Shown: positions 291 through 62,426, counted from the stretch's first letter. The stretch is DNA of 64,000 nucleotides from an uncultured Candidatus Saccharibacteria bacterium (GCA_965230955.1 OZ246404.1:582410-646409), one strand, 5' to 3'. Made by a program: numbers and translations. The notes: a model not told the origin generated them from the sequence alone.

Positions 291-302
291 GTAATTGTCT
301 AT

Positions 303-373
303 GGTCTTTAGTCTTTAGTCTTTTGTCTTTAGCAATATCGAAATCTAAAGACCAATGACTAAAGACCAAAGAC
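303..373. repeat. Palindromic tandem-heptamer element, GTCTTTG family: GTCTTTAG x4 then loop then inverted CTAAAGAC units; atpF-atpE intercistronic
   Basis: ggtctttagtctttagtcttttgtctttag ... ctaaagaccaatgactaaagaccaaagac; the two arms are reverse complements. Confidence 0.8.
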
Positions 374-3683: not shown

Positions 3684-4256
3684 CTACTTGTAGATCGCGT
3701 TTTGGTCAGGATATATGACACCCTTCCCGTCCGGGCTATAGAGCACTAAATCCACCCCGATGGCACCGGCCTTGGTCTCCCATTTGGGAGTTTTTTGTGA
3801 CCAAGTATGACCGGATCCAAAAACACTGCCGGAAATCTCCGCCACGCCGTAACTATTCTGGCCATTGACGTTGTTTTCCAGCGGGATAATACCGTAAATA
3901 TCGTTGACAATAAAAGGATGAGGATTACCGTCCTGAATCGGAACAGCGTTGTAAAGTACTCCCCAGCCATTCTGGACGGCCTGATGGACACAATGCTGGG
4001 TTCCGGTACCGGTATCGACTTCCATTTTGTCGCAACCGCCGGTAGAAATAACGTAAACACCAAGATAAGAGCCGATATAATACTTGGCTCCGCCGGAAAT
4101 CTGAAAATAGACCCATTGTCCCAGAGCCAGGGACTGATTGGTACTGGCGGGCGGATCCATCGCCAAAGTCAATTTAAAGTAAGTACCGCCGACGCATAAT
4201 ACGATCCCCAGCAGAAGTAGCAAGGCGACAATTTGATATTTTAGTTTATGAACCAT
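3684..4256 (-). CDS. Secreted or membrane-anchored hypothetical protein
   Basis: N-terminal hydrophobic anchor; no recognisable catalytic motif. Confidence 0.4.
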   Translation of the reverse strand: MVHKLKYQIVALLLLLGIVLCVGGTYFKLTLAMDPPASTNQSLALGQWVYFQISGGAKYYIGSYLGVYVISTGGCDKMEVDTGTGTQHCVHQAVQNGWGVLYNAVPIQDGNPHPFIVNDIYGIIPLENNVNGQNSYGVAEISGSVFGSGHTWSQKTPKWETKAGAIGVDLVLYSPDGKGVIYPDQNAIYK

Positions 4257-6214: not shown

Positions 6215-6264
6215 AACTAATCCGCAAACAAACAGCGTGGAAAAAATTATACGATAAAACTAAA

Positions 6265-6292
6265 ACAGCGACGGCCTTAAGGCCGTCGCTGT
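6265..6292. terminator. Bidirectional hairpin between convergent genes
   Basis: Perfect palindrome acagcgacggcc ttaa ggccgtcgctgt. Confidence 0.5.
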
Positions 6293-6316
6293 TGATTGAT
6301 ATCGAAAATTATTTTC

Positions 6317-8353: not shown

Positions 8354-8371
8354 AATATTACTTTTGACTTT

Positions 8372-9418
8372 TTACTTATACTCATATTTTATCCGACACG
8401 CCCCCTCCCGCGACACCATACATGCCCCAATCGGTTTCTCCGGAGTGCAAGCGCACCTAAATAATTTACAATCCTCGGGGGCAATCAGCCCCTTGATCAC
8501 GTCGCCGCAACGGCAACCAGGGGTCTTTAGTCGTTGGTCTTTAGTCTTTAGCCGATAATTAGCAATAATCTTTTTGTACCGAACAGCGGCGTCGAATTTA
8601 GCGTACTTTTTCTTTATCTGCATCCCCGATTTCGGAATTTTTCCCAGTCCGCGCCATTCGCTATCGACCGGCTTGAAAACTTCCGCGATTAATTTCTTCG
8701 CCCGCCGATTACCGTTCGGTTTCACTAGCCGGCGGTATTCGTTTTCAACTTTTGACTCCCCGCAGGTAATCTGGCGCAAAAGCATAATAACCGCCAGTAA
8801 AATATCCGTCGGTTCAAAGCCCGCGATTACCTGCGGCTTTTTTATCACGCTGTATGGTTTGAGCCCGGTGATGGCCGAAACGTGGCCGGGATTGATGAAA
8901 CCGTCAATCTTGATCTGCTTATCTCGACTTAATGCCAGCATCGCCGGCGGGAAATACTTGTGGGCGGAATAAACCATGAGCCCGTGCTTGATCGCGGATG
9001 CCGTCATCGGCACCGTGGTCTCAAATCCTAGACCGAAAAAAACAACGGCCGGCTCGTCTTTTTTCCATTTCAGCGCTTCTTCGACGGAATAAACGGCTCT
9101 GACCTTGGCACCACTGGCTTTGACTTGCTCCAGACTCATTTCCGAGCCCGGTACGCGCAACACATCACCATAGCACGCGATCGGGATGCCGCTCAAGGCT
9201 AAACCAACCACGGCGTCAATATCGCTCAGCGGGGTGACGCAAACGGGACAGCCCGGGCCGGTCACGAGCTCAATTTTCTTTGGCAAAACCGCGCGCAGAC
9301 CGGAACGCGAAATCGCCTCGGTGTGCGTGCCGCAGACTTCCATGAGGCGGACTGGTTTACGAAGCGTTGCCGCTAATATTTCTATTTCGCGCGTAAGTTG
9401 TAGGGTGGATGATGGCAT
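8372..9418 (-). CDS. hypD: Hydrogenase maturation protein HypD
   Basis: CGTH, GPGCPVC, PGCRCGDV and CxxP...CMVS.EGAC motifs of HypD. Confidence 0.85.
   Translation of the reverse strand: MPSSTLQLTREIEILAATLRKPVRLMEVCGTHTEAISRSGLRAVLPKKIELVTGPGCPVCVTPLSDIDAVVGLALSGIPIACYGDVLRVPGSEMSLEQVKASGAKVRAVYSVEEALKWKKDEPAVVFFGLGFETTVPMTASAIKHGLMVYSAHKYFPPAMLALSRDKQIKIDGFINPGHVSAITGLKPYSVIKKPQVIAGFEPTDILLAVIMLLRQITCGESKVENEYRRLVKPNGNRRAKKLIAEVFKPVDSEWRGLGKIPKSGMQIKKKYAKFDAAVRYKKIIANYRLKTKDQRLKTPGCRCGDVIKGLIAPEDCKLFRCACTPEKPIGACMVSREGACRIKYEYK
8523..8553. repeat. Half-copy of the GTCTTTG-family element lying in-frame inside hypD
   Basis: gtctttagtcgttggtctttagtctttagcc reads on the coding strand as RLKTKDQRLKT, immediately before the conserved PGCRCGDV. 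Confidence 0.6.
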
Positions 9419-9492
9419 GGTCTTTGGTCTTTAGTCTTTGGTCTTTGGCCCAGAAAAAGCCGGCTAAAGACTAAAGACAAAAGACTAACGAC
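9419..9492. repeat. Palindromic tandem-heptamer element (GTCTTTG family), hypD-hypC junction
   Basis: ggtctttggtctttagtctttggtctttggcc ... ggctaaagactaaagacaaaagactaacgac; abuts the hypD ATG. Confidence 0.8.
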
Positions 9493-9697
9493 CCTTAGCA
9501 AAATCCGCCAACGCCGATTTCGCTTCCTTACTATCTAAAACCCCAATAGCAAACCCCGTATGCACCGTAACATAATCCCCGGCCTTGGCCTCCGGCACCA
9601 ATTCCAGGCTCACTTCTTTTTTTAAACCATTAAATGAAACGACCGCGTGGCGGTCGCGATGGAGTGAGATGATTTTACCGGGGATTGCTAAGCACAT
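9485..9697 (-). CDS. hypC: Hydrogenase maturation chaperone HypC
   Basis: Starts MCLAIPGKI, the HypC N-terminal signature; 70 aa. Confidence 0.8.
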   Translation of the reverse strand: MCLAIPGKIISLHRDRHAVVSFNGLKKEVSLELVPEAKAGDYVTVHTGFAIGVLDSKEAKSALADFAKGR

Positions 9698-9721: not shown

Positions 9722-9797
9722 AGTCTTTGGTCTTTAGTCTATAGTCTTTGGCCATAAAATATTCAGGCTAAAGACAAAAGACCAACGGCTAAAGACC
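9722..9797. repeat. Palindromic tandem-heptamer element (GTCTTTG family)
   Basis: agtctttggtctttagtctatagtctttggcc ... ggctaaagacaaaagaccaacggctaaagacc. Confidence 0.8.
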
Positions 9798-9800
9798 TTT

Positions 9801-10163
9801 TCAGCAAGTAGTATGAATTAAAGCATTAACTACTTTATTTTCCTTAACCAAATCATTGTACGTACGAACCGCCTGCGGAGTGATCTGGATAATCAAACGC
9901 GGCACGGCGCCTTCCAGTTTGAGGGAAACCTCTTCATCAACTTCCAGCACGCCTTCCTGTCCGGTACCGATCAAAATCACGTCCGGGTTTCCGCTTAGTA
10001 ATTTGGCCGTTTCCCAATCTCCGACCCGGTGGGTGGTCTTAAATAGTTCATGTAATTTTTTGGCGTCGCGCTCCTCCACCTTATCGCCAATAATCAAAAC
10101 CTGGCCGTATTTTTTGCCATTGACGGTGATCGAGCCGAATTCGCAGGAATCGATTATGGGCAT
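9801..10163 (-). CDS. Mth938-like domain protein; true start MPIIDS, the longer ORF N-terminus is repeat read-through
   Basis: About 120 aa, ends ...ALIHTTC as Mth938/DUF498 members do. ATG at 10161-10163 directly abuts the repeat. Confidence 0.45.
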   Translation of the reverse strand: MPIIDSCEFGSITVNGKKYGQVLIIGDKVEERDAKKLHELFKTTHRVGDWETAKLLSGNPDVILIGTGQEGVLEVDEEVSLKLEGAVPRLIIQITPQAVRTYNDLVKENKVVNALIHTTC

Positions 10164-10230
10164 GGTCTTTAGTCTTTGGTCTTTAGTCTTTGGCCACGCT
10201 TTCAGGCTAAAGACCAACGACGAAAGATCT
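10164..10230. repeat. Palindromic tandem-heptamer element (GTCTTTG family)
   Basis: ggtctttagtctttggtctttagtctttggcc ... ggctaaagaccaacgacgaaagatc. Confidence 0.8.
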
Positions 10231-10232
10231 TT

Positions 10233-11072
10233 TTACACCGCACCCTTAATATCCCTAATCTCCGCATACCGAAACACCGGTCCCTCGTCGCAAACCAATT
10301 TCGGCCCGATGCCGCAATGATGGCACTCGCCCACCCCGCACTGCATATGGCGCTCGAGTGAGATATAAATATCTTCGTCTTGAATATCATGTTTATGCAA
10401 GGCCTCGATCACAAATTTGCACATAACCGAAGGACCGACGATAAAAACCAACGGATGACCGACTAATTTCTTATTATCAACCAAGGCGGTGATCAACCCT
10501 TCATCGCAGACGACAGGGCCCTTTTCTCCGCAATGCTTGTCGACCGTCAGTTCAACTTTGATTTTTTTCCGCCACTCTACCAATTCAGTTTTGTATAATA
10601 AATCGGCTTCACTGCGCGCCCCGTAAAAAAGCTGAACTTCTTTAAAATTTTCCGGCCGAGCGATAGCATCCAAAACAATCGCTCGGAGCGGGACAATCCC
10701 TATCCCACCGGCAATAACGAGCAAATTACGATTTTTCAGCAATTTAGTCGGAAATGATCCTTTCCCGAGAGGCCCGCGGATACCGATCATATCACCGGGT
10801 TTTTTCTTGTGCAGTTCCGATGTCAACCGGCCAACCGCCCGCACCCCGATTTCAAAAGTGTCGGTTTTGAAAGAAGACGACGCGATTCCCACCGGCGCTT
10901 CGCCGTAGCCAGCGATTGAAAACATGACGAATTGACCGGGCAGAAAATAAAAATTATTCTGATCGGCCGGATCGGTAAATTGCAAAACAAAAGTCTTCAC
11001 CCGCGGCGCTTCGTCGCGGATTTGAGTTATTTTAGCCGGTTTTGGTTCGTAGTTATTGATCATTGCTTTCAA
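10233..11072 (-). CDS. FAD/NAD-binding plus C-terminal [2Fe-2S] oxidoreductase subunit, sulfhydrogenase gamma (HydG) / AsrB / PyrK-like
   Basis: Ferredoxin-reductase-type fold with C-terminal CGVGECHHCG...C cluster motif; start is TTG at 11072 or ATG at 11063. Confidence 0.65.
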   Translation of the reverse strand: MKAMINNYEPKPAKITQIRDEAPRVKTFVLQFTDPADQNNFYFLPGQFVMFSIAGYGEAPVGIASSSFKTDTFEIGVRAVGRLTSELHKKKPGDMIGIRGPLGKGSFPTKLLKNRNLLVIAGGIGIVPLRAIVLDAIARPENFKEVQLFYGARSEADLLYKTELVEWRKKIKVELTVDKHCGEKGPVVCDEGLITALVDNKKLVGHPLVFIVGPSVMCKFVIEALHKHDIQDEDIYISLERHMQCGVGECHHCGIGPKLVCDEGPVFRYAEIRDIKGAV

Positions 11073-11449
11073 GTAAGAGTCCTTGGTCTTTGGTCGTTAG
11101 TCTTTGGCCCGAGGAGAGATTTAATTAAAGAACTCAGCAAATTTCCAACTTGGTGACACCGGGCTAATTCGTCATCCACCTTCACTTGATACAATTTTTT
11201 CAGCAGATATAAGATAGTCACCGTCTCGTACAAAGATCCTCTGGATATTCTCAGATATCTGATAAATTCCTTGTCGCTATTACTACTTTGCCCCTCCGCG
11301 ACATTGAGCGAGACAGAAGTCACCGCCCGCCGCAATTGAGCTAACAAACCAAATTTCTCGATGGACGGGCACTTTTCCTGGAAGCGGTAGATCGACTCGG
11401 CCAAAAACATAGCCGCTTGCCAAACTCTTAAACGTTCAAACTTGTACAC
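11069..11449 (-). CDS. Four-helix-bundle protein (the family found in 23S rRNA intervening sequences)
   Basis: About 120 aa helical protein with the LRRA..S..LNIAEG and RGSL.E motifs of this family; C-terminal codons (GPKTNDQRPRT) are read from the repeat half-site. Confidence 0.6.
   Translation of the reverse strand: MYKFERLRVWQAAMFLAESIYRFQEKCPSIEKFGLLAQLRRAVTSVSLNVAEGQSSNSDKEFIRYLRISRGSLYETVTILYLLKKLYQVKVDDELARCHQVGNLLSSLIKSLLGPKTNDQRPRTLT
11082..11110. repeat. Left half-site of a GTCTTTG-family element, separated from its partner by the four-helix-bundle gene
   Basis: ggtctttggtcgttagtctttggcc with no adjacent inverted arm. Confidence 0.7.
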
Positions 11450-11471: not shown

Positions 11472-11496
11472 GGCTAAAGACCAAAGACTAAAGACC
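11472..11496. repeat. Right half-site, inverted partner of 11082..11110
   Basis: ggctaaagaccaaagactaaagacc; reverse complement matches the left half. Confidence 0.7.
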
Positions 11497-12485: not shown

Positions 12486-12488
12486 GAT

Positions 12489-12540
12489 AGTCTTTGGTCT
12501 TTAGTCTTTGGTCTTTGGCTAAAGACTAAAGACTAACGAC
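12489..12540. repeat. Palindromic tandem-heptamer element (GTCTTTG family) with almost no loop
   Basis: agtctttggtctttagtctttggtctttgg|ctaaagactaaagactaacgac; starts 3 nt from the 11508..12485 ATG. Confidence 0.8.
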
Positions 12541-12576
12541 AAAAGGCCTTTCGGGAAAGCGCCAAAACTTACACAT

Positions 12577-20551: not shown

Positions 20552-20604
20552 AGTCTTTGGTCTTTAGCTGTTGGTCTTTGGCTAAAAACCAAAGACTAAA
20601 GACT
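20552..20604. repeat. Palindromic tandem-heptamer element (GTCTTTG family)
   Basis: agtctttggtctttagctgttggtctttgg ctaaaaaccaaagactaaagact; lies about 10 nt from the 19883..20542 ATG. Confidence 0.8.
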
Positions 20605-20842
20605 ATTTTAGAGCTTTATCAATCTCATCTTTATTAAATCCCAAGATCATCTTGGCGCTTTCGCCCTCGCCGATATAAATGACCGGCACCCCCATCTGCC
20701 CGCTGCGCTGGACGGCTTCTTCGGCGTTTTTAGGATCGCTGACGTCTTTTTCTTCGTATTTGGCGCCGATCTGGCTGAAATACTGCTTGGCCATAGTGCA
20801 ATAACCGCACGACGGCGAAGTGTAAATAAGAATCTTTTTCAT
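20603..20842 (-). CDS. Glutaredoxin-like protein
   Basis: 79 aa with CGYC active site near the N-terminus. Confidence 0.7.
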   Translation of the reverse strand: MKKILIYTSPSCGYCTMAKQYFSQIGAKYEEKDVSDPKNAEEAVQRSGQMGVPVIYIGEGESAKMILGFNKDEIDKALK

Positions 20843-21496: not shown

Positions 21497-21555
21497 AAGT
21501 TAAAAGGTAAAAGGCAAAAAGCAAAAACAATTTTTACCTTTTACCTTTTGCCTTA
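21497..21555. repeat. Palindromic tandem-heptamer element, AAAAGGT variant
   Basis: aagttaaaaggtaaaaggcaaaaagcaaaaa caa tttttaccttttaccttttgcctta. Confidence 0.7.
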
Positions 21556-25810: not shown

Positions 25811-25814
25811 GATT

Positions 25815-25873
25815 GGTCTTTAGTCTTTGGTCTTTAGTCTTTGGCTAACGACAAACGACCAAAGACAAAAGAC
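25815..25873. repeat. Palindromic tandem-heptamer element (GTCTTTG family)
   Basis: ggtctttagtctttggtctttagtctttgg ctaacgacaaacgaccaaagacaaaagac; starts 4 nt from the 25064..25810 ATG. Confidence 0.8.
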
Positions 25874-49299: not shown

Positions 49300-49373
49300 G
49301 CGCCTATAGCTCAATTGGATAGAGCACCGGACTACGAATCCGTCGGTCAGGGGTTCGAATCCCCTTAGGCGCA
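49300..49373 (+). tRNA. tRNA-Arg (anticodon ACG)
   Basis: Cloverleaf folded by hand: acceptor gcgccta/taggcgc, anticodon loop cuACGaa, T-loop ttcgaat; CCA not encoded. Confidence 0.85.
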
Positions 49374-49379
49374 TGAAGA

Positions 49380-49453
49380 GCGGCTATAGCTCAATTGGAT
49401 AGAGCGCTGGACTTCGAATCCAGAGGTCGGGAGTTCGATCCTCCCTAGCCGCA
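49380..49453 (+). tRNA. tRNA-Arg (anticodon TCG)
   Basis: Acceptor gcggcta/tagccgc, anticodon stem ctgga/tccag, loop cuUCGaa. Confidence 0.85.
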
Positions 49454-49461
49454 AACGGAGC

Positions 49462-49535
49462 GCACCTGTAGCTCAGTTGGATAGAGCAGTGGACTTCTAA
49501 TCCACCGGTCGCGGGTTCGAGCCCCGCCAGGTGCA
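49462..49535 (+). tRNA. tRNA-Arg (anticodon TCT)
   Basis: Acceptor gcacctg/caggtgc, anticodon stem gtgga/tccac, loop cuUCUaa. Confidence 0.85.
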
Positions 49536-49544
49536 TGCTACAAC

Positions 49545-49618
49545 GCGGCAGTAGCTCAGTTGGATAGAGTATCAGACTCCGAATCTGAAGGCCGGGGGTT
49601 CAAATCCCCTCTGCCGCA
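49545..49618 (+). tRNA. tRNA-Arg (anticodon CCG)
   Basis: Acceptor gcggcag/ctgccgc, anticodon stem tcaga/tctga, loop cuCCGaa. Confidence 0.85.
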
Positions 49619-49623
49619 TTATC

Positions 49624-49697
49624 GGGCCAGTAGCTCAGATGGATAGAGCACGGGACTCCTAATCCTGAGGCCACGGGTTCGAATCCCGTCTGGCTCA
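49624..49697 (+). tRNA. tRNA-Arg (anticodon CCT)
   Basis: Acceptor gggccag/ctggctc, anticodon stem cggga/tcctg, loop cuCCUaa. Confidence 0.85.
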
Positions 49698-53214: not shown

Positions 53215-53289
53215 TGGCTGGGGAGATAGGATTCGAACCTATGTATGGCGCCTCCAGAGGGCGCTGCCTTACCGCTTGGCTACTCCCCA
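53215..53289 (-). tRNA. tRNA-Gln (anticodon CTG), CCA encoded
   Basis: Minus-strand cloverleaf: acceptor tggggag/ctcccca (U1-A72), anticodon stem gcgcc/ggcgc, loop cuCUGga, T-arm atagg ttcgaat cctat, then g + cca. Confidence 0.75.
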
Positions 53290-53292
53290 ATA

Positions 53293-53367
53293 AAGTCAAA
53301 AGTCAAAAATCAAAAGTAAAAAGTTGGAATATCGAACTTTAGACTTTTGACTTTTGACTTTTTACTT
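53293..53367. repeat. Palindromic tandem-heptamer element, GTCAAAAG variant (tRNA-Gln / ftsX junction)
   Basis: aagtcaaaagtcaaaaatcaaaagtaaaaag ... ctttagacttttgacttttgactttttactt. Confidence 0.75.
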
Positions 53368-54273
53368 CCTCAAGTATCGCCCAACGGCGATTGATGAACT
53401 AATGATCCCCAACAGCACTCCCAGGGCCACCATGCCGCCGGCAATCCAAAGCATATTCTGGGTGAAAAAATGCACCATGTCAAGGCTTTCCCCTTCGAAG
53501 AAGGCTGTGATTTTAGGATTGGCGGCATTGAGAATCGGATAAAGCAAAACCAATGTAACCACCGCGCCAATAATGCCATAGATGACACCTTCCAGTAAAA
53601 ATGGCCCGCGAATAAACCAATTAGTCGCGCCGACCAGTTTCATGATTCCGATCTCCTCTTTGTGGGTATATATAGCCAGACGAACGGTATTGAAAACCAC
53701 TAAAATCGCAATTATCACGAAAGCTCCACCGACGGCGATACCGCCCTTCCGGATAGTACTGGCGATCCGCACCAGCCGGTCAATCACGTCTTTATTTTCC
53801 TGAAAATCAACTTTTAGAATTACGTCGGAGAAACGATCGCTTGATAAATAATCGGATATTCCCTCATAATCCTCAGTCTGAATCGCCTTGATCACCAGTG
53901 AGGCTTCCAGTGGATTCTCCTGGAGTTCTTCCAACGATTTCAGGATCAAATCGTCGTCTTTATGAGCTTGCTTGAATTGATTCAGCGCTTCTTCCTTGCT
54001 GATGAATTTTGTCGTCTCCACATTGTTCAAGTTTTGAACCTGCGCTCGCACCTCTAAAATTCGATCCTCCTGAGCCGCGGTTTTGAAATAAACCGTCAGG
54101 TCGACCTTCTTTTGGACCTGATCTACCGCCGCGTTGGCCAGCAAGTTCAAGATGACGATCGTAGTAATGATAAAAAGCGTCACGACCATAATAACAGTGG
54201 TCGCCACACTTAACCAAATATTGCGCCAAAAATTATCCAGACCGAATTTTACGACTCTAAGGAAACCAGACAT
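53362..54273 (-). CDS. ftsX: Cell division permease FtsX
   Basis: Four TM segments with a large periplasmic loop, paired with ftsE; the ORF N-terminus (MTFDLWLSL) is read from the repeat, so start is called at MSGFLRV. Confidence 0.7.
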   Translation of the reverse strand: MSGFLRVVKFGLDNFWRNIWLSVATTVIMVVTLFIITTIVILNLLANAAVDQVQKKVDLTVYFKTAAQEDRILEVRAQVQNLNNVETTKFISKEEALNQFKQAHKDDDLILKSLEELQENPLEASLVIKAIQTEDYEGISDYLSSDRFSDVILKVDFQENKDVIDRLVRIASTIRKGGIAVGGAFVIIAILVVFNTVRLAIYTHKEEIGIMKLVGATNWFIRGPFLLEGVIYGIIGAVVTLVLLYPILNAANPKITAFFEGESLDMVHFFTQNMLWIAGGMVALGVLLGIISSSIAVGRYLRK

Positions 54274-54280
54274 AAGGGAA

Positions 54281-54352
54281 AGCCAAAGGTCAAAAGTCAA
54301 AGGTCAAAAATTGATGAACAACTTTTTACTTTTGACTTTTTACTTTTGACTT
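54281..54352. repeat. Palindromic tandem-heptamer element, GTCAAAAG variant (ftsE-ftsX junction)
   Basis: agccaaaggtcaaaagtcaaaggtcaaaaa ... ctttttacttttgactttttacttttgactt. Confidence 0.75.
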
Positions 54353-62344: not shown

Positions 62345-62426
62345 TATCAGGTAACAATTAACAAGTAACAAATAAGAAAATTCCCTTCCAATTTGTCACT
62401 TGTTACCTGTTACTTGATACCTGATA
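62345..62426. repeat. Palindromic tandem-heptamer element, GTAACAA variant; overlaps the last codons of the 62403..62966 gene
   Basis: tatcaggtaacaattaacaagtaacaa ... ttgtcacttgttacctgttacttgatacctgata. Confidence 0.65.

Follow-up and report, generated by a model that had tools for sequence, protein, structure and literature searches.

A heptamer repeat arm within hypD

We analyzed a 64,000-nucleotide stretch of DNA from an uncultured Candidatus Saccharibacteria bacterium (GCA_965230955.1 OZ246404.1:582410-646409; hereafter the window), in which hypD, a gene of a hydrogenase/hyp operon, contains one translated arm of a repeat family that also forms hairpins at the junctions of this operon. 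Arrays of the same design occupy the same site in hypD of most close relatives and are absent from the outgroup loci that we compared. The gene and the arm are located as follows:

8372-9418, minus strand: hypD, 348 aa, intact (Pfam PF01924, motifs, structure model)
8522-8553, minus strand: hypD-internal repeat arm of 32 nt, consisting of four heptamers and the GGCY boundary of the heptamer family

The open reading frame (ORF) at 8372-9418 (minus strand) encodes a full-length HypD. Pfam PF01924 matched it over positions 5-351 of 351 (E=6.8e-130), and it carries the CGTH, GPGCPVC, GFETT, and PGHVS motifs as well as the C-terminal Fe-S cysteines; the invariant columns of the family include C29, G30, H32, G54-C60, F132, T134, T135, P177-V180, C302, C304, C317, C324, and C341. 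A phmmer search matched it to Thermococcus kodakarensis HypD (2z1d, E=5.5e-79), and an AlphaFold model of the protein, with an overall predicted local distance difference test score (pLDDT) of 92.3, gave a TM score of 0.92 to the HypD chain of 3vys (3vys_B).

As the original prediction had reported, the 31-nt sequence GTCTTTAGTCGTTGGTCTTTAGTCTTTAGCC is found at 8523-8553 on the plus strand, inside the 348-aa HypD ORF. Read on the sense strand, GGCT-AAAGACT-AAAGACC-AACGACT-AAAGACC, it proves to be one complete arm, GGCY(AAAGACY)4, with the exact boundaries of the heptamer family (GGCY...GACC). The codons that cover the arm (8522-8554, CGG CTA AAG ACT AAA GAC CAA CGA CTA AAG ACC) specify residues R289-T299, and the peptide RLKTKDQRLKT lies between IIANY and the Fe-S-domain motif PGCRCGDV, in agreement with the predicted translation. 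The frame is likewise kept, although the prediction had attributed this to a length divisible by three, which 31 nt is not; the codons span 33 nt and the arm 32 nt. Matches to the 31-mer with at most 3 mismatches numbered six, compared with none in 100 shuffles, and its 16-mer core matched 44 times where 0.42 matches were expected, so that the arm belongs to the repeat family far beyond chance. The arm stands alone, with no inverted partner within hypD.

The arm differs at two positions from the 3' arm at 10165-10195 and at two positions from the reverse complement of the 5' arm at 9766-9796, and these two nearest matches sit 1.2-1.6 kb upstream of it. Among the ~30 heptamer arms in the 64 kb, it alone lies deep in a conserved gene, with one other arm forming a C-terminal tail. 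Its flanks (TATC before GGCT, CCTGG after GACC) show no target-site duplication. An assembly artefact does not account for the arm, since the identical 33 nt are present in L081 and L082, which are independent assemblies of one relative.

The codons of the arm also bear its mark. CTA, the rarest leucine codon in use (5% of leucine codons), appears twice, as expected for an origin at the DNA level. In the sense orientation the array is translated into the hydrophilic cycle L-K-T-K-D-Q-R, provided that the unit in the YAA codon phase has a C, as it does here (CAA), whereas the antisense orientation yields stop codons or the hydrophobic peptide VFSLWSL; this would explain why the copy lies in the sense orientation.

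Heptamer hairpins at the operon junctions

The unit of the family reads GTCTTTR on one strand and YAAAGAC on the other, and each arm comprises four tandem heptamers with a GGCC or AGCC boundary. Full elements are inverted pairs, (GTCTTTR)4-AGCC, then 4-12 nt, then GGCC-(AAAGACY)4, which fold into hairpins of -22 to -43 kcal/mol and, upstream of hypD, mark each gene junction in the hydrogenase/hyp operon. The elements in the window, and the terminator of the operon, are the following (arm and fold analysis unless otherwise noted):

9419-9493, minus strand: full hairpin element between hypC and hypD, (GTCTTTR)4-AGCC, 11-nt loop, GGCC(AAAGACY)4
9722-9797, minus strand: full hairpin element between the DUF498 gene and hypC
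10164-10232, minus strand: full hairpin element between the NAD-binding/Fe-S subunit gene and the DUF498 gene
11079-11109, minus strand: 3' arm of a split element, translated as the C-terminal tail GPKTNDQRPRTLT, followed by the stop codon, of the PF05635 ORF
11472-11496, minus strand: 5' arm of the split element, with the PF05635 gene (11069-11449) in its loop
12488-12548, minus strand: full hairpin element upstream of the Fer4_22 hydrogenase-subunit gene, 4-nt loop, 3' arm ending 3 nt before the ATG
297-373, minus strand: AAAGACY-family element between atpE and atpF
20553-20605, minus strand: AAAGACY-family element upstream of the gene for a DsbA-like thioredoxin
25813-25873, minus strand: AAAGACY-family element between the divergent PNP_UDP_1 and RlmN-like radical SAM genes
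6264-6293, minus strand: canonical GC-rich intrinsic terminator after hypE, at the operon end (terminator scan)

Seven of the ten AAAGACY sites in the window fall within 8.5-12.5 kb. A family specific to hydrogenase genes was nevertheless rejected, because elements are also found at atpE/atpF, the DsbA-like gene, and the PNP/RlmN-like pair.

An ATG lies 0-24 nt beyond the arm at hypD, hypC, atpF, and the DUF498, Fer4_22, and PNP genes, and no GGAGG is present at these starts. At 9419-9493 (-43.2 kcal/mol on the plus strand and -32.4 kcal/mol on the minus strand), the 3' arm abuts the hypD ATG, which has no Shine-Dalgarno sequence; the 3' arm at 10164-10232 abuts the DUF498 ATG in the same manner, and this element holds one of the two copies nearest to the hypD arm. 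A scan for consensus terminators did not call the heptamer hairpins, and the operon ends with an ordinary terminator after hypE, which indicates that the hairpins are intercistronic elements rather than terminators. Rfam identified no family on any arm in the 64 kb, where only 6 tRNAs reached the gathering score, and no transposase, RAYT/Y1_Tnp, or integrase was found among the ~48 of 69 candidate window ORFs scanned.

The split element provides the second translated arm. Its two arms form the Fer4_22/PF05635 and PF05635/NAD-binding subunit junctions, and the PF05635 gene ('23S rRNA intervening sequence protein', a four-helix bundle), which has a strong Shine-Dalgarno sequence of its own (AGAGGAGGG), sits exactly in the hairpin loop, between ...AGCC and GGCC.... 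The last 13 residues of this ORF derive from the 3' arm, in the same heptamer/codon register as in hypD. L083 has the PF05635 insertion as well, with an orthologous ORF that stops just before the arm, and in L088 a PF05635 gene follows the 5' arm behind Fer4_22, at the same junction. Arms are thus readily absorbed into reading frames.

The same architecture is built from other units (AAAGTCA, AAAAGGY, GTAACAA) at 613-679, 53291-53368, 54284-54352, 21497-21555, and 62351-62413, where about four units, a short loop, and about four inverted units fold to -22 to -34 kcal/mol. Locations of these elements include atpB/atpE, a position 2 nt from a tRNA gene (53218-53289), and an FtsX/ABC-ATPase gene junction. 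Since several units build one design, the common theme is the architecture and not the unit sequence.

Arrays at the same hypD site in relatives and outgroups

Nine further HypD sequences with 76-87% identity, for which the DNA was retrieved, make up with the window about ten ingroup sequences of a small group of Patescibacteria (Candidate Phyla Radiation, CPR). An array of about four heptamer units lies at the same hypD linker in seven of the ten close lineages, and the sequences found there in the relatives are as follows:

L081 (P0002): the same 33 nt as in the window
L084 (P0004): GGCC(AAAGACY)4, moved by exactly 7 nt, gene length unchanged
L086 (P0007): CATAGAC x3 and CAAAGAC in a displaced register, with an intergenic arm on the contig also of ATAGAC type
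L087 (P0008): CAAAGAT x4
L083 (P0003): AACGCAA x4-5
L088 (P0010): AACGTAA / AAAATGT / AAAACGC units (AAAAYGY)
L085 (P0005), L128 (P0006), and L089 (P0009): no period-7 array, with the hairpin-like sequence CCGGC-GAAA-GCCGG instead

The encoded peptides differ strongly between lineages (RLKTKDQRLKT, LVNAKRKTQNAK, RRKPDRLATQKQ), while the periodicity of the DNA persists. Unit types found in one hypD recur between genes elsewhere in the clade: arms of the AAAGAT type, as in the L087 hypD array, are intergenic in L085 and L089, and an AAAATGT array, as in the L088 hypD, lies at the hypD 3' junction of L087. The sequence in the three lineages without an array has a 5-bp stem and a GAAA loop and is in frame (L085 9328-9341, L128 904-917, L089 ~3840-3900). 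A family of such GC hairpins was considered and dropped, as no further copies were present in the retrieved loci. L089 additionally has a 12-aa (36-nt) linker insertion, which is GC-rich and palindromic as judged by eye only.

We compared the operons of two outgroups, L127 (GCA_042571345.1) and L129 (GCA_030607525.1), with those of the window, L083, L085, L088, and L089. In the outgroups, the operon (SfLAP-Fer4_22-NAD_binding-HypC-HypD-HypE) is tightly packed, its genes overlap, and 33 kb of the two loci contain no period-7 array, whereas ingroup operons carry a hairpin at each junction. The ingroup has variable extra genes exactly at hairpin junctions (DUF498, PF05635, an acetyltransferase in L089, and a 444-aa ORF in L085), and after hypD there is either a methyltransferase gene or a pair of ORFs of 92 aa and 238 aa. 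The hairpins may be hot spots of recombination or insertion. Arms that appeared at first to be lone and sense-oriented before start codons in the relatives turned out to be full hairpins, the 5' arms of which the period-7 filter had missed; for full palindromes, arm orientation is uninformative.

In 80 distant hypD loci (813 kb), which served as a control, there were only 21 period-7 runs, none of which was inside hypD. Two more distant CPR-like contigs with hyp genes (L003 8093-8823, L004 4960-5705) have arrays of GTAACTC, GGAAATT, and TGTATCT near hypD, and none within it. A scan of genome contigs for HypD found nothing closer than 60% identity and so supplied outgroups and controls only, and a scan of metagenome contigs with the degenerate pattern C[RC]CG[DEK]VIKG gave 37 loci, none from this clade. 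A search of 5.8 billion proteins with the translated array (RLKTKDQ repeats) returned only 13 short hypothetical ORFs of 40-79 aa; there is thus no sign of widespread in-frame copies, with a search that is insensitive to 11-aa segments.

Replacement of a variable HypD linker

The arm lies in a linker that we measured as the residues between the near-invariant A277 and the invariant C302. This linker has 24 residues in the window HypD, compared with a mode of 21 (83/110) and a range of 19-30 among 110 homologues at ≤65% identity, and it is the most length-variable part of the family. The nearest repeat-free outgroups (P0011-P0014) have linkers of 19-20 aa (20 aa in L127 and 19 aa in L129, reading LPKPTKTARG and IPSPKEIKG, respectively), T. 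kodakarensis HypD has 6 residues fewer than the window, and ingroup linkers measure 23-26 aa in nine of ten lineages and 38 aa in one. Throughout the family, the linkers are hydrophilic and lysine-rich. In the structure model, the least confident block is residues 291-300 (mean pLDDT 64), which places the arm in a variable loop.

The original prediction held that the element adds 11 residues to HypD as an insertion. The orthologue comparison does not bear this out, since a linker is present in all HypD proteins and is only 3-5 aa shorter where the repeat is missing; judged from these lengths, the arm mostly replaced a pre-existing lysine-rich linker, with a net gain of 3-5 aa. A clean insertion is also at odds with the arrays that relatives hold at the same place, because arrays with other units, or shifted by one unit, argue for conversion or replacement rather than cut-and-paste insertion. 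The outgroup DNA at this site already reads CCAAAG, a possible microhomology seed.

We therefore regard it as very unlikely that a mobile half-element, comparable to Rickettsia palindromic elements or miniature inverted-repeat transposable elements, was inserted in frame in a single event. The copy does match the family and keep the frame, and the ingroup linker is longer than that of the outgroups. However, there is a single arm with a net gain of only 3-5 aa and no flanking target-site duplication, the 7-nt shift in L084 and L086, where the gene keeps its length, and the other unit types at the same site point away from an insertion, and the scanned ORFs included no transposase, RAYT, or integrase.

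The linker could instead reflect adaptation of the protein, with selection for a longer, charged, and flexible segment and a nucleotide periodicity that is incidental. This would fit with the hydrophilic, lysine-rich linkers of the whole family and with the ingroup length being held at 23-26 aa in nine of ten lineages. Nevertheless, a 7-nt period has no meaning for the protein below 7 aa, the peptides diverge strongly between lineages while the DNA periodicity stays, and the arm uses rare codons, all of which make selection on the protein a highly improbable cause of the array.

More distant HypD proteins (P0024, P0030, P0032, and P0056; 55-57% identity) have linkers of 24-25 aa with an 8-aa periodicity (NLKIKRLKNLKIQ, GLKIQRFKDSKIQ), which suggests that tandem 8-nt or 24-nt DNA repeats may occupy the same HypD site in other CPR lineages.

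Origin and maintenance of the hypD copy

We favor the explanation that the hypD arm is a passenger copy that is translated and tolerated in a permissive loop, having been made and remodelled by ectopic conversion from neighboring arms, and give it a probability of roughly 0.6. In the clade ancestor, heptamer hairpins would have colonized every junction of the hydrogenase/hyp operon, and one arm would then have been copied into the lysine-rich, surface-exposed linker that precedes the HypD Fe-S domain, likely through ectopic gene conversion or template switching with A-rich microhomology as the seed. The copy would have overwritten most of the former linker, at the net gain of 3-5 aa described above, and could have persisted because the sense orientation gives a stop-free, hydrophilic loop (LKTKDQR) as long as the YAA-phase unit has a C. 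Repeated conversion from other arms would maintain the 7-nt periodicity, swap the unit type in some lineages, and move the edge of the arm by one unit while the gene keeps its length. The hypD copy would need no function. What we observed is the identity, extent, and frame of the copy, the lengths of the linkers, the lack of arrays in the outgroups, and the arrays of relatives at this site; from these patterns we infer both the conversion and the neutrality of the copy.

All units of an array carry the same change, and the GGCC boundary moves by one unit without a change in gene length. Independent point mutations would hardly produce this, whereas conversion from other arms, in some cases paired out of register, would be expected to. 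The second translated arm in the PF05635 tail, the rare CTA codons, the low-confidence variable linker, and the mosaic structure of hypD also count in favor of a passenger copy. This mosaicism is evident in P0003, which is 97% identical to P0002 over residues 1-190 but 77% identical over residues 191-283. The recombination breakpoint in this gene (L083 9945-10988) falls elsewhere than the repeat arm. A neighbor-joining tree for ordering the gains and losses of arrays was discarded as unreliable because hypD is mosaic, and for the same reason gains and losses at the linker cannot be ordered on a tree.

Several observations weigh against a passenger copy renewed by conversion. The 33 nt lie within a 46-nt run that is identical between the window and L081 even though the two genes are only 82.8% identical (180 differences), which could mean selection at the nucleotide level. 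This run is tied for the longest in hypD (P ~0.003 under uniform divergence), although ~130 nt around the arm are 87-95% identical, so that P ~0.03 is fairer. In the hypC/hypD element, the 5' arm is also identical between the window and L081 (30/30), while the loop differs and the 3' arm has 4 units in the former and 5 in the latter; arms thus seem to be kept or homogenized generally, the hypD copy being no exception. A period-7 array is missing from three ingroup lineages (P0005, P0006, and P0009), a search for a donor arm of the AACGCAA type found none within 20 kb of L083, and unit types are not always matched locally, as L084 has an AAAGAC-type array in hypD and an ATAGAC-type arm upstream. 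Finally, the case for conversion is built from patterns in only about ten ingroup sequences.

The unit length, which is not a multiple of three, raises the question of whether hypD is a contingency (phase-variation) locus in which slippage of the 7-nt unit would shift the reading frame and so toggle hydrogenase maturation. Other bacteria do have phase-variable loci with heptanucleotide units, and the intergenic 3' arm has four units in the window and five in L081. However, the hypD array has only four units, and these are interrupted (T/C at the Y position, one AACGAC unit), which should suppress slippage. The copy number is the same in the window, L081, and L082, the members of two protein clusters are all 347-348 aa long, and arms fixed at four units are also seen in non-coding copies. 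We consider phase variation extremely improbable.

Pairing potential and a possible role as a cis-element

The four full operon elements (9419-9493, 9722-9797, 10164-10232, and 12488-12548) fold 5-11 kcal/mol better on the antisense (plus) strand, because positions that form G·U pairs on that strand are A·C mismatches on the sense strand (R/Y and AGCC/GGCC positions). When pairing is compared in sense RNA, four of the five upstream 5' arms form their most stable duplex with the hypD arm, with pairing energies of -41.9, -29.6, -49.6, and -43.7 kcal/mol compared with -26.9, -24.0, -28.2, and -34.4 kcal/mol for their own partners. This better pairing is a trivial consequence, however, if a 5' arm, in reverse complement, was the source of the copy.

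These energies bear on the possibility that the internal arm is kept as a functional cis-element with a role at the RNA or DNA level, either as a long-range 'anti-arm' for the upstream (GUCUUUR)4 5' arms or as an extra site for a factor that recognizes the arrays at start codons. In addition to the pairing with four of five 5' arms, a period of 7 with about four units is retained in seven of ten lineages despite turnover of the unit, the window and L081 share the 46-nt perfect match, and the intergenic arms abut Shine-Dalgarno-less starts, comparable to the TAACTGA repeats, which have been proposed to bind a translational regulator. On the other hand, the units in L083 (AACGCAA) and L088 (AACGTAA) are unrelated, and no arm complementary to them lies in 20 kb of the former or 8.7 kb of the latter. 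The lineages P0005, P0006, and P0009 lack an array altogether. Such a partner is thus missing wherever the array is of the AACGCAA type or absent, and this speaks against pairing as a conserved role. The internal arm is not followed by a start codon, and local hairpins with loops of 4-12 nt would be kinetically favored over a partner 0.9-4 kb away. Retention of the arm as a cis-element thus seems unlikely to us.

A broader form of this proposal would make the arrays operon-wide post-transcriptional cis-elements of CPR bacteria that are poor in Shine-Dalgarno sequences, with the hypD copy as a component maintained by selection; we hold it to be improbable. If it were true, pairing by the hypD anti-arm, more stable than that with the 5' arms' own partners, would tie hypD translation or mRNA folding to the unmasking of upstream starts, or alternatively the hypD copy would be a further binding site for a factor that binds heptamer arrays. 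In either case, a nucleic-acid periodicity would be under selection within coding sequence across species, with the unit co-evolving.

Relation to known repeat families

Three known families come closest. TAACTGA repeats of marine Beggiatoaceae, cyanobacteria, and Bacteroidetes (MacGregor 2015, PMC4679880) are tandem arrays of 2-43 7-nt units that are mostly intergenic and end a few nt from Shine-Dalgarno-less starts, with a minority in ORFs, mostly at the protein periphery. Cyanobacterial STRR sequences form hairpins of 7-bp tandem repeats between hupS and hupL (PMC2670836), and Geobacter metallireducens has 49 copies of a GGACCGG x4 element within and between genes (Aklujkar 2009, PMC2700814).

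With the TAACTGA repeats, the heptamer family shares short 7-nt arrays near Shine-Dalgarno-less starts that can be translated in one orientation and give stops in the other; it differs in its unit (AAAGACY/GTCTTTR), in arrays that almost always have 4 units (3-5), in inverted pairs that form 20-30-bp hairpins, in its CPR host, and in a hypD copy that lies at a domain linker of a conserved enzyme and not at a terminus. STRR sequences resemble it as hairpins between hydrogenase genes, for which effects on transcript stability or translational coupling have been proposed, and as repeats that can sit at a tolerant position in a functional gene, although units and phylum differ. We know of no report of an STRR sequence as a translated segment of HypD. 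Judged against the STRR/TAACTGA type, the family has tandem 7-nt units and intergenic copies near Shine-Dalgarno-less starts, but not the unit sequence. The Geobacter elements, like those described here, have exactly four tandem heptamers and occur both in and between genes, whereas they are GC-rich, have another unit, are not described as inverted pairs, and come without comparative data on an orthologous site. By analogy, these three are the closest counterparts of the heptamer family, which shares none of their units and is set apart from them by fixed four-unit arms arranged as inverted pairs.

Rickettsia palindromic elements, to which the original prediction had likened the hypD arm, are whole palindromes of ~150 bp in dozens of unrelated genes, each encoding a conserved peptide (PMC10969869). 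The likeness holds for the in-frame effect on the protein, a translated repeat at a structurally tolerant place in a conserved protein, but not for family membership: hypD contains a single 32-nt arm and no self-palindrome of ~100-150 bp, the 64 kb hold one internal case and one C-terminal tail, and the peptide varies between relatives. The heptamer family thus resembles these elements in effect only and is not a member. REP/BIME/REPIN sequences are extragenic, imperfect palindromes of 20-40 nt with a GTAG/CGTC head and a RAYT (Y1) transposase, and their classical role is mRNA stabilization. They are likewise short palindromic repeats between operon genes; here, in contrast, there is no GTAG/CGTC head, the stems consist of tandem heptamers, and no RAYT was among the ORFs scanned.

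In-frame capture of small repeats is a known, though rarely documented, way for selfish or structural DNA to reshape proteins. What makes this locus most valuable is the comparative series, one orthologous site in about ten uncultivated CPR genomes with repeat-free outgroups, in which the ingroup array has the same unit, a variant of it, or a different one, is shifted in register, or is absent. The site could serve as a compact natural system for the spread of arms by conversion and their uptake by a protein loop. The family itself, intercistronic hairpins that are built of heptamers and abut Shine-Dalgarno-less starts in a streamlined genome of 1.1 Mb (1.14 Mb), has so far been undescribed, and its hairpins coincide with gene-insertion sites in a conserved operon.

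Effects on annotation and other features of the window

The arms call for caution in annotation, as they can yield spurious N-terminal extensions, C-terminal tails, and small ORFs. In the window, arms give rise to artefactual features of the ORFs at 9801-10217 (minus strand), 8364-8558 (plus strand), and 10932-11156 (plus strand): the DUF498 ORF gains the N-terminal extension MVFSLKAWPKTKDQRLKT from an arm, the true start being the ATG at 10163. Small antisense ORFs over arms are rich in VFSLWSLVF, and 'hypothetical proteins' of this kind, 40-79 aa long, are present in public databases.

Elsewhere in the window, five tRNA genes are clustered at 49300-49697 (plus strand). Long ORFs lie predominantly on the minus strand (45 of 52) and the GC skew is negative throughout, as would fit a single replichore arm.

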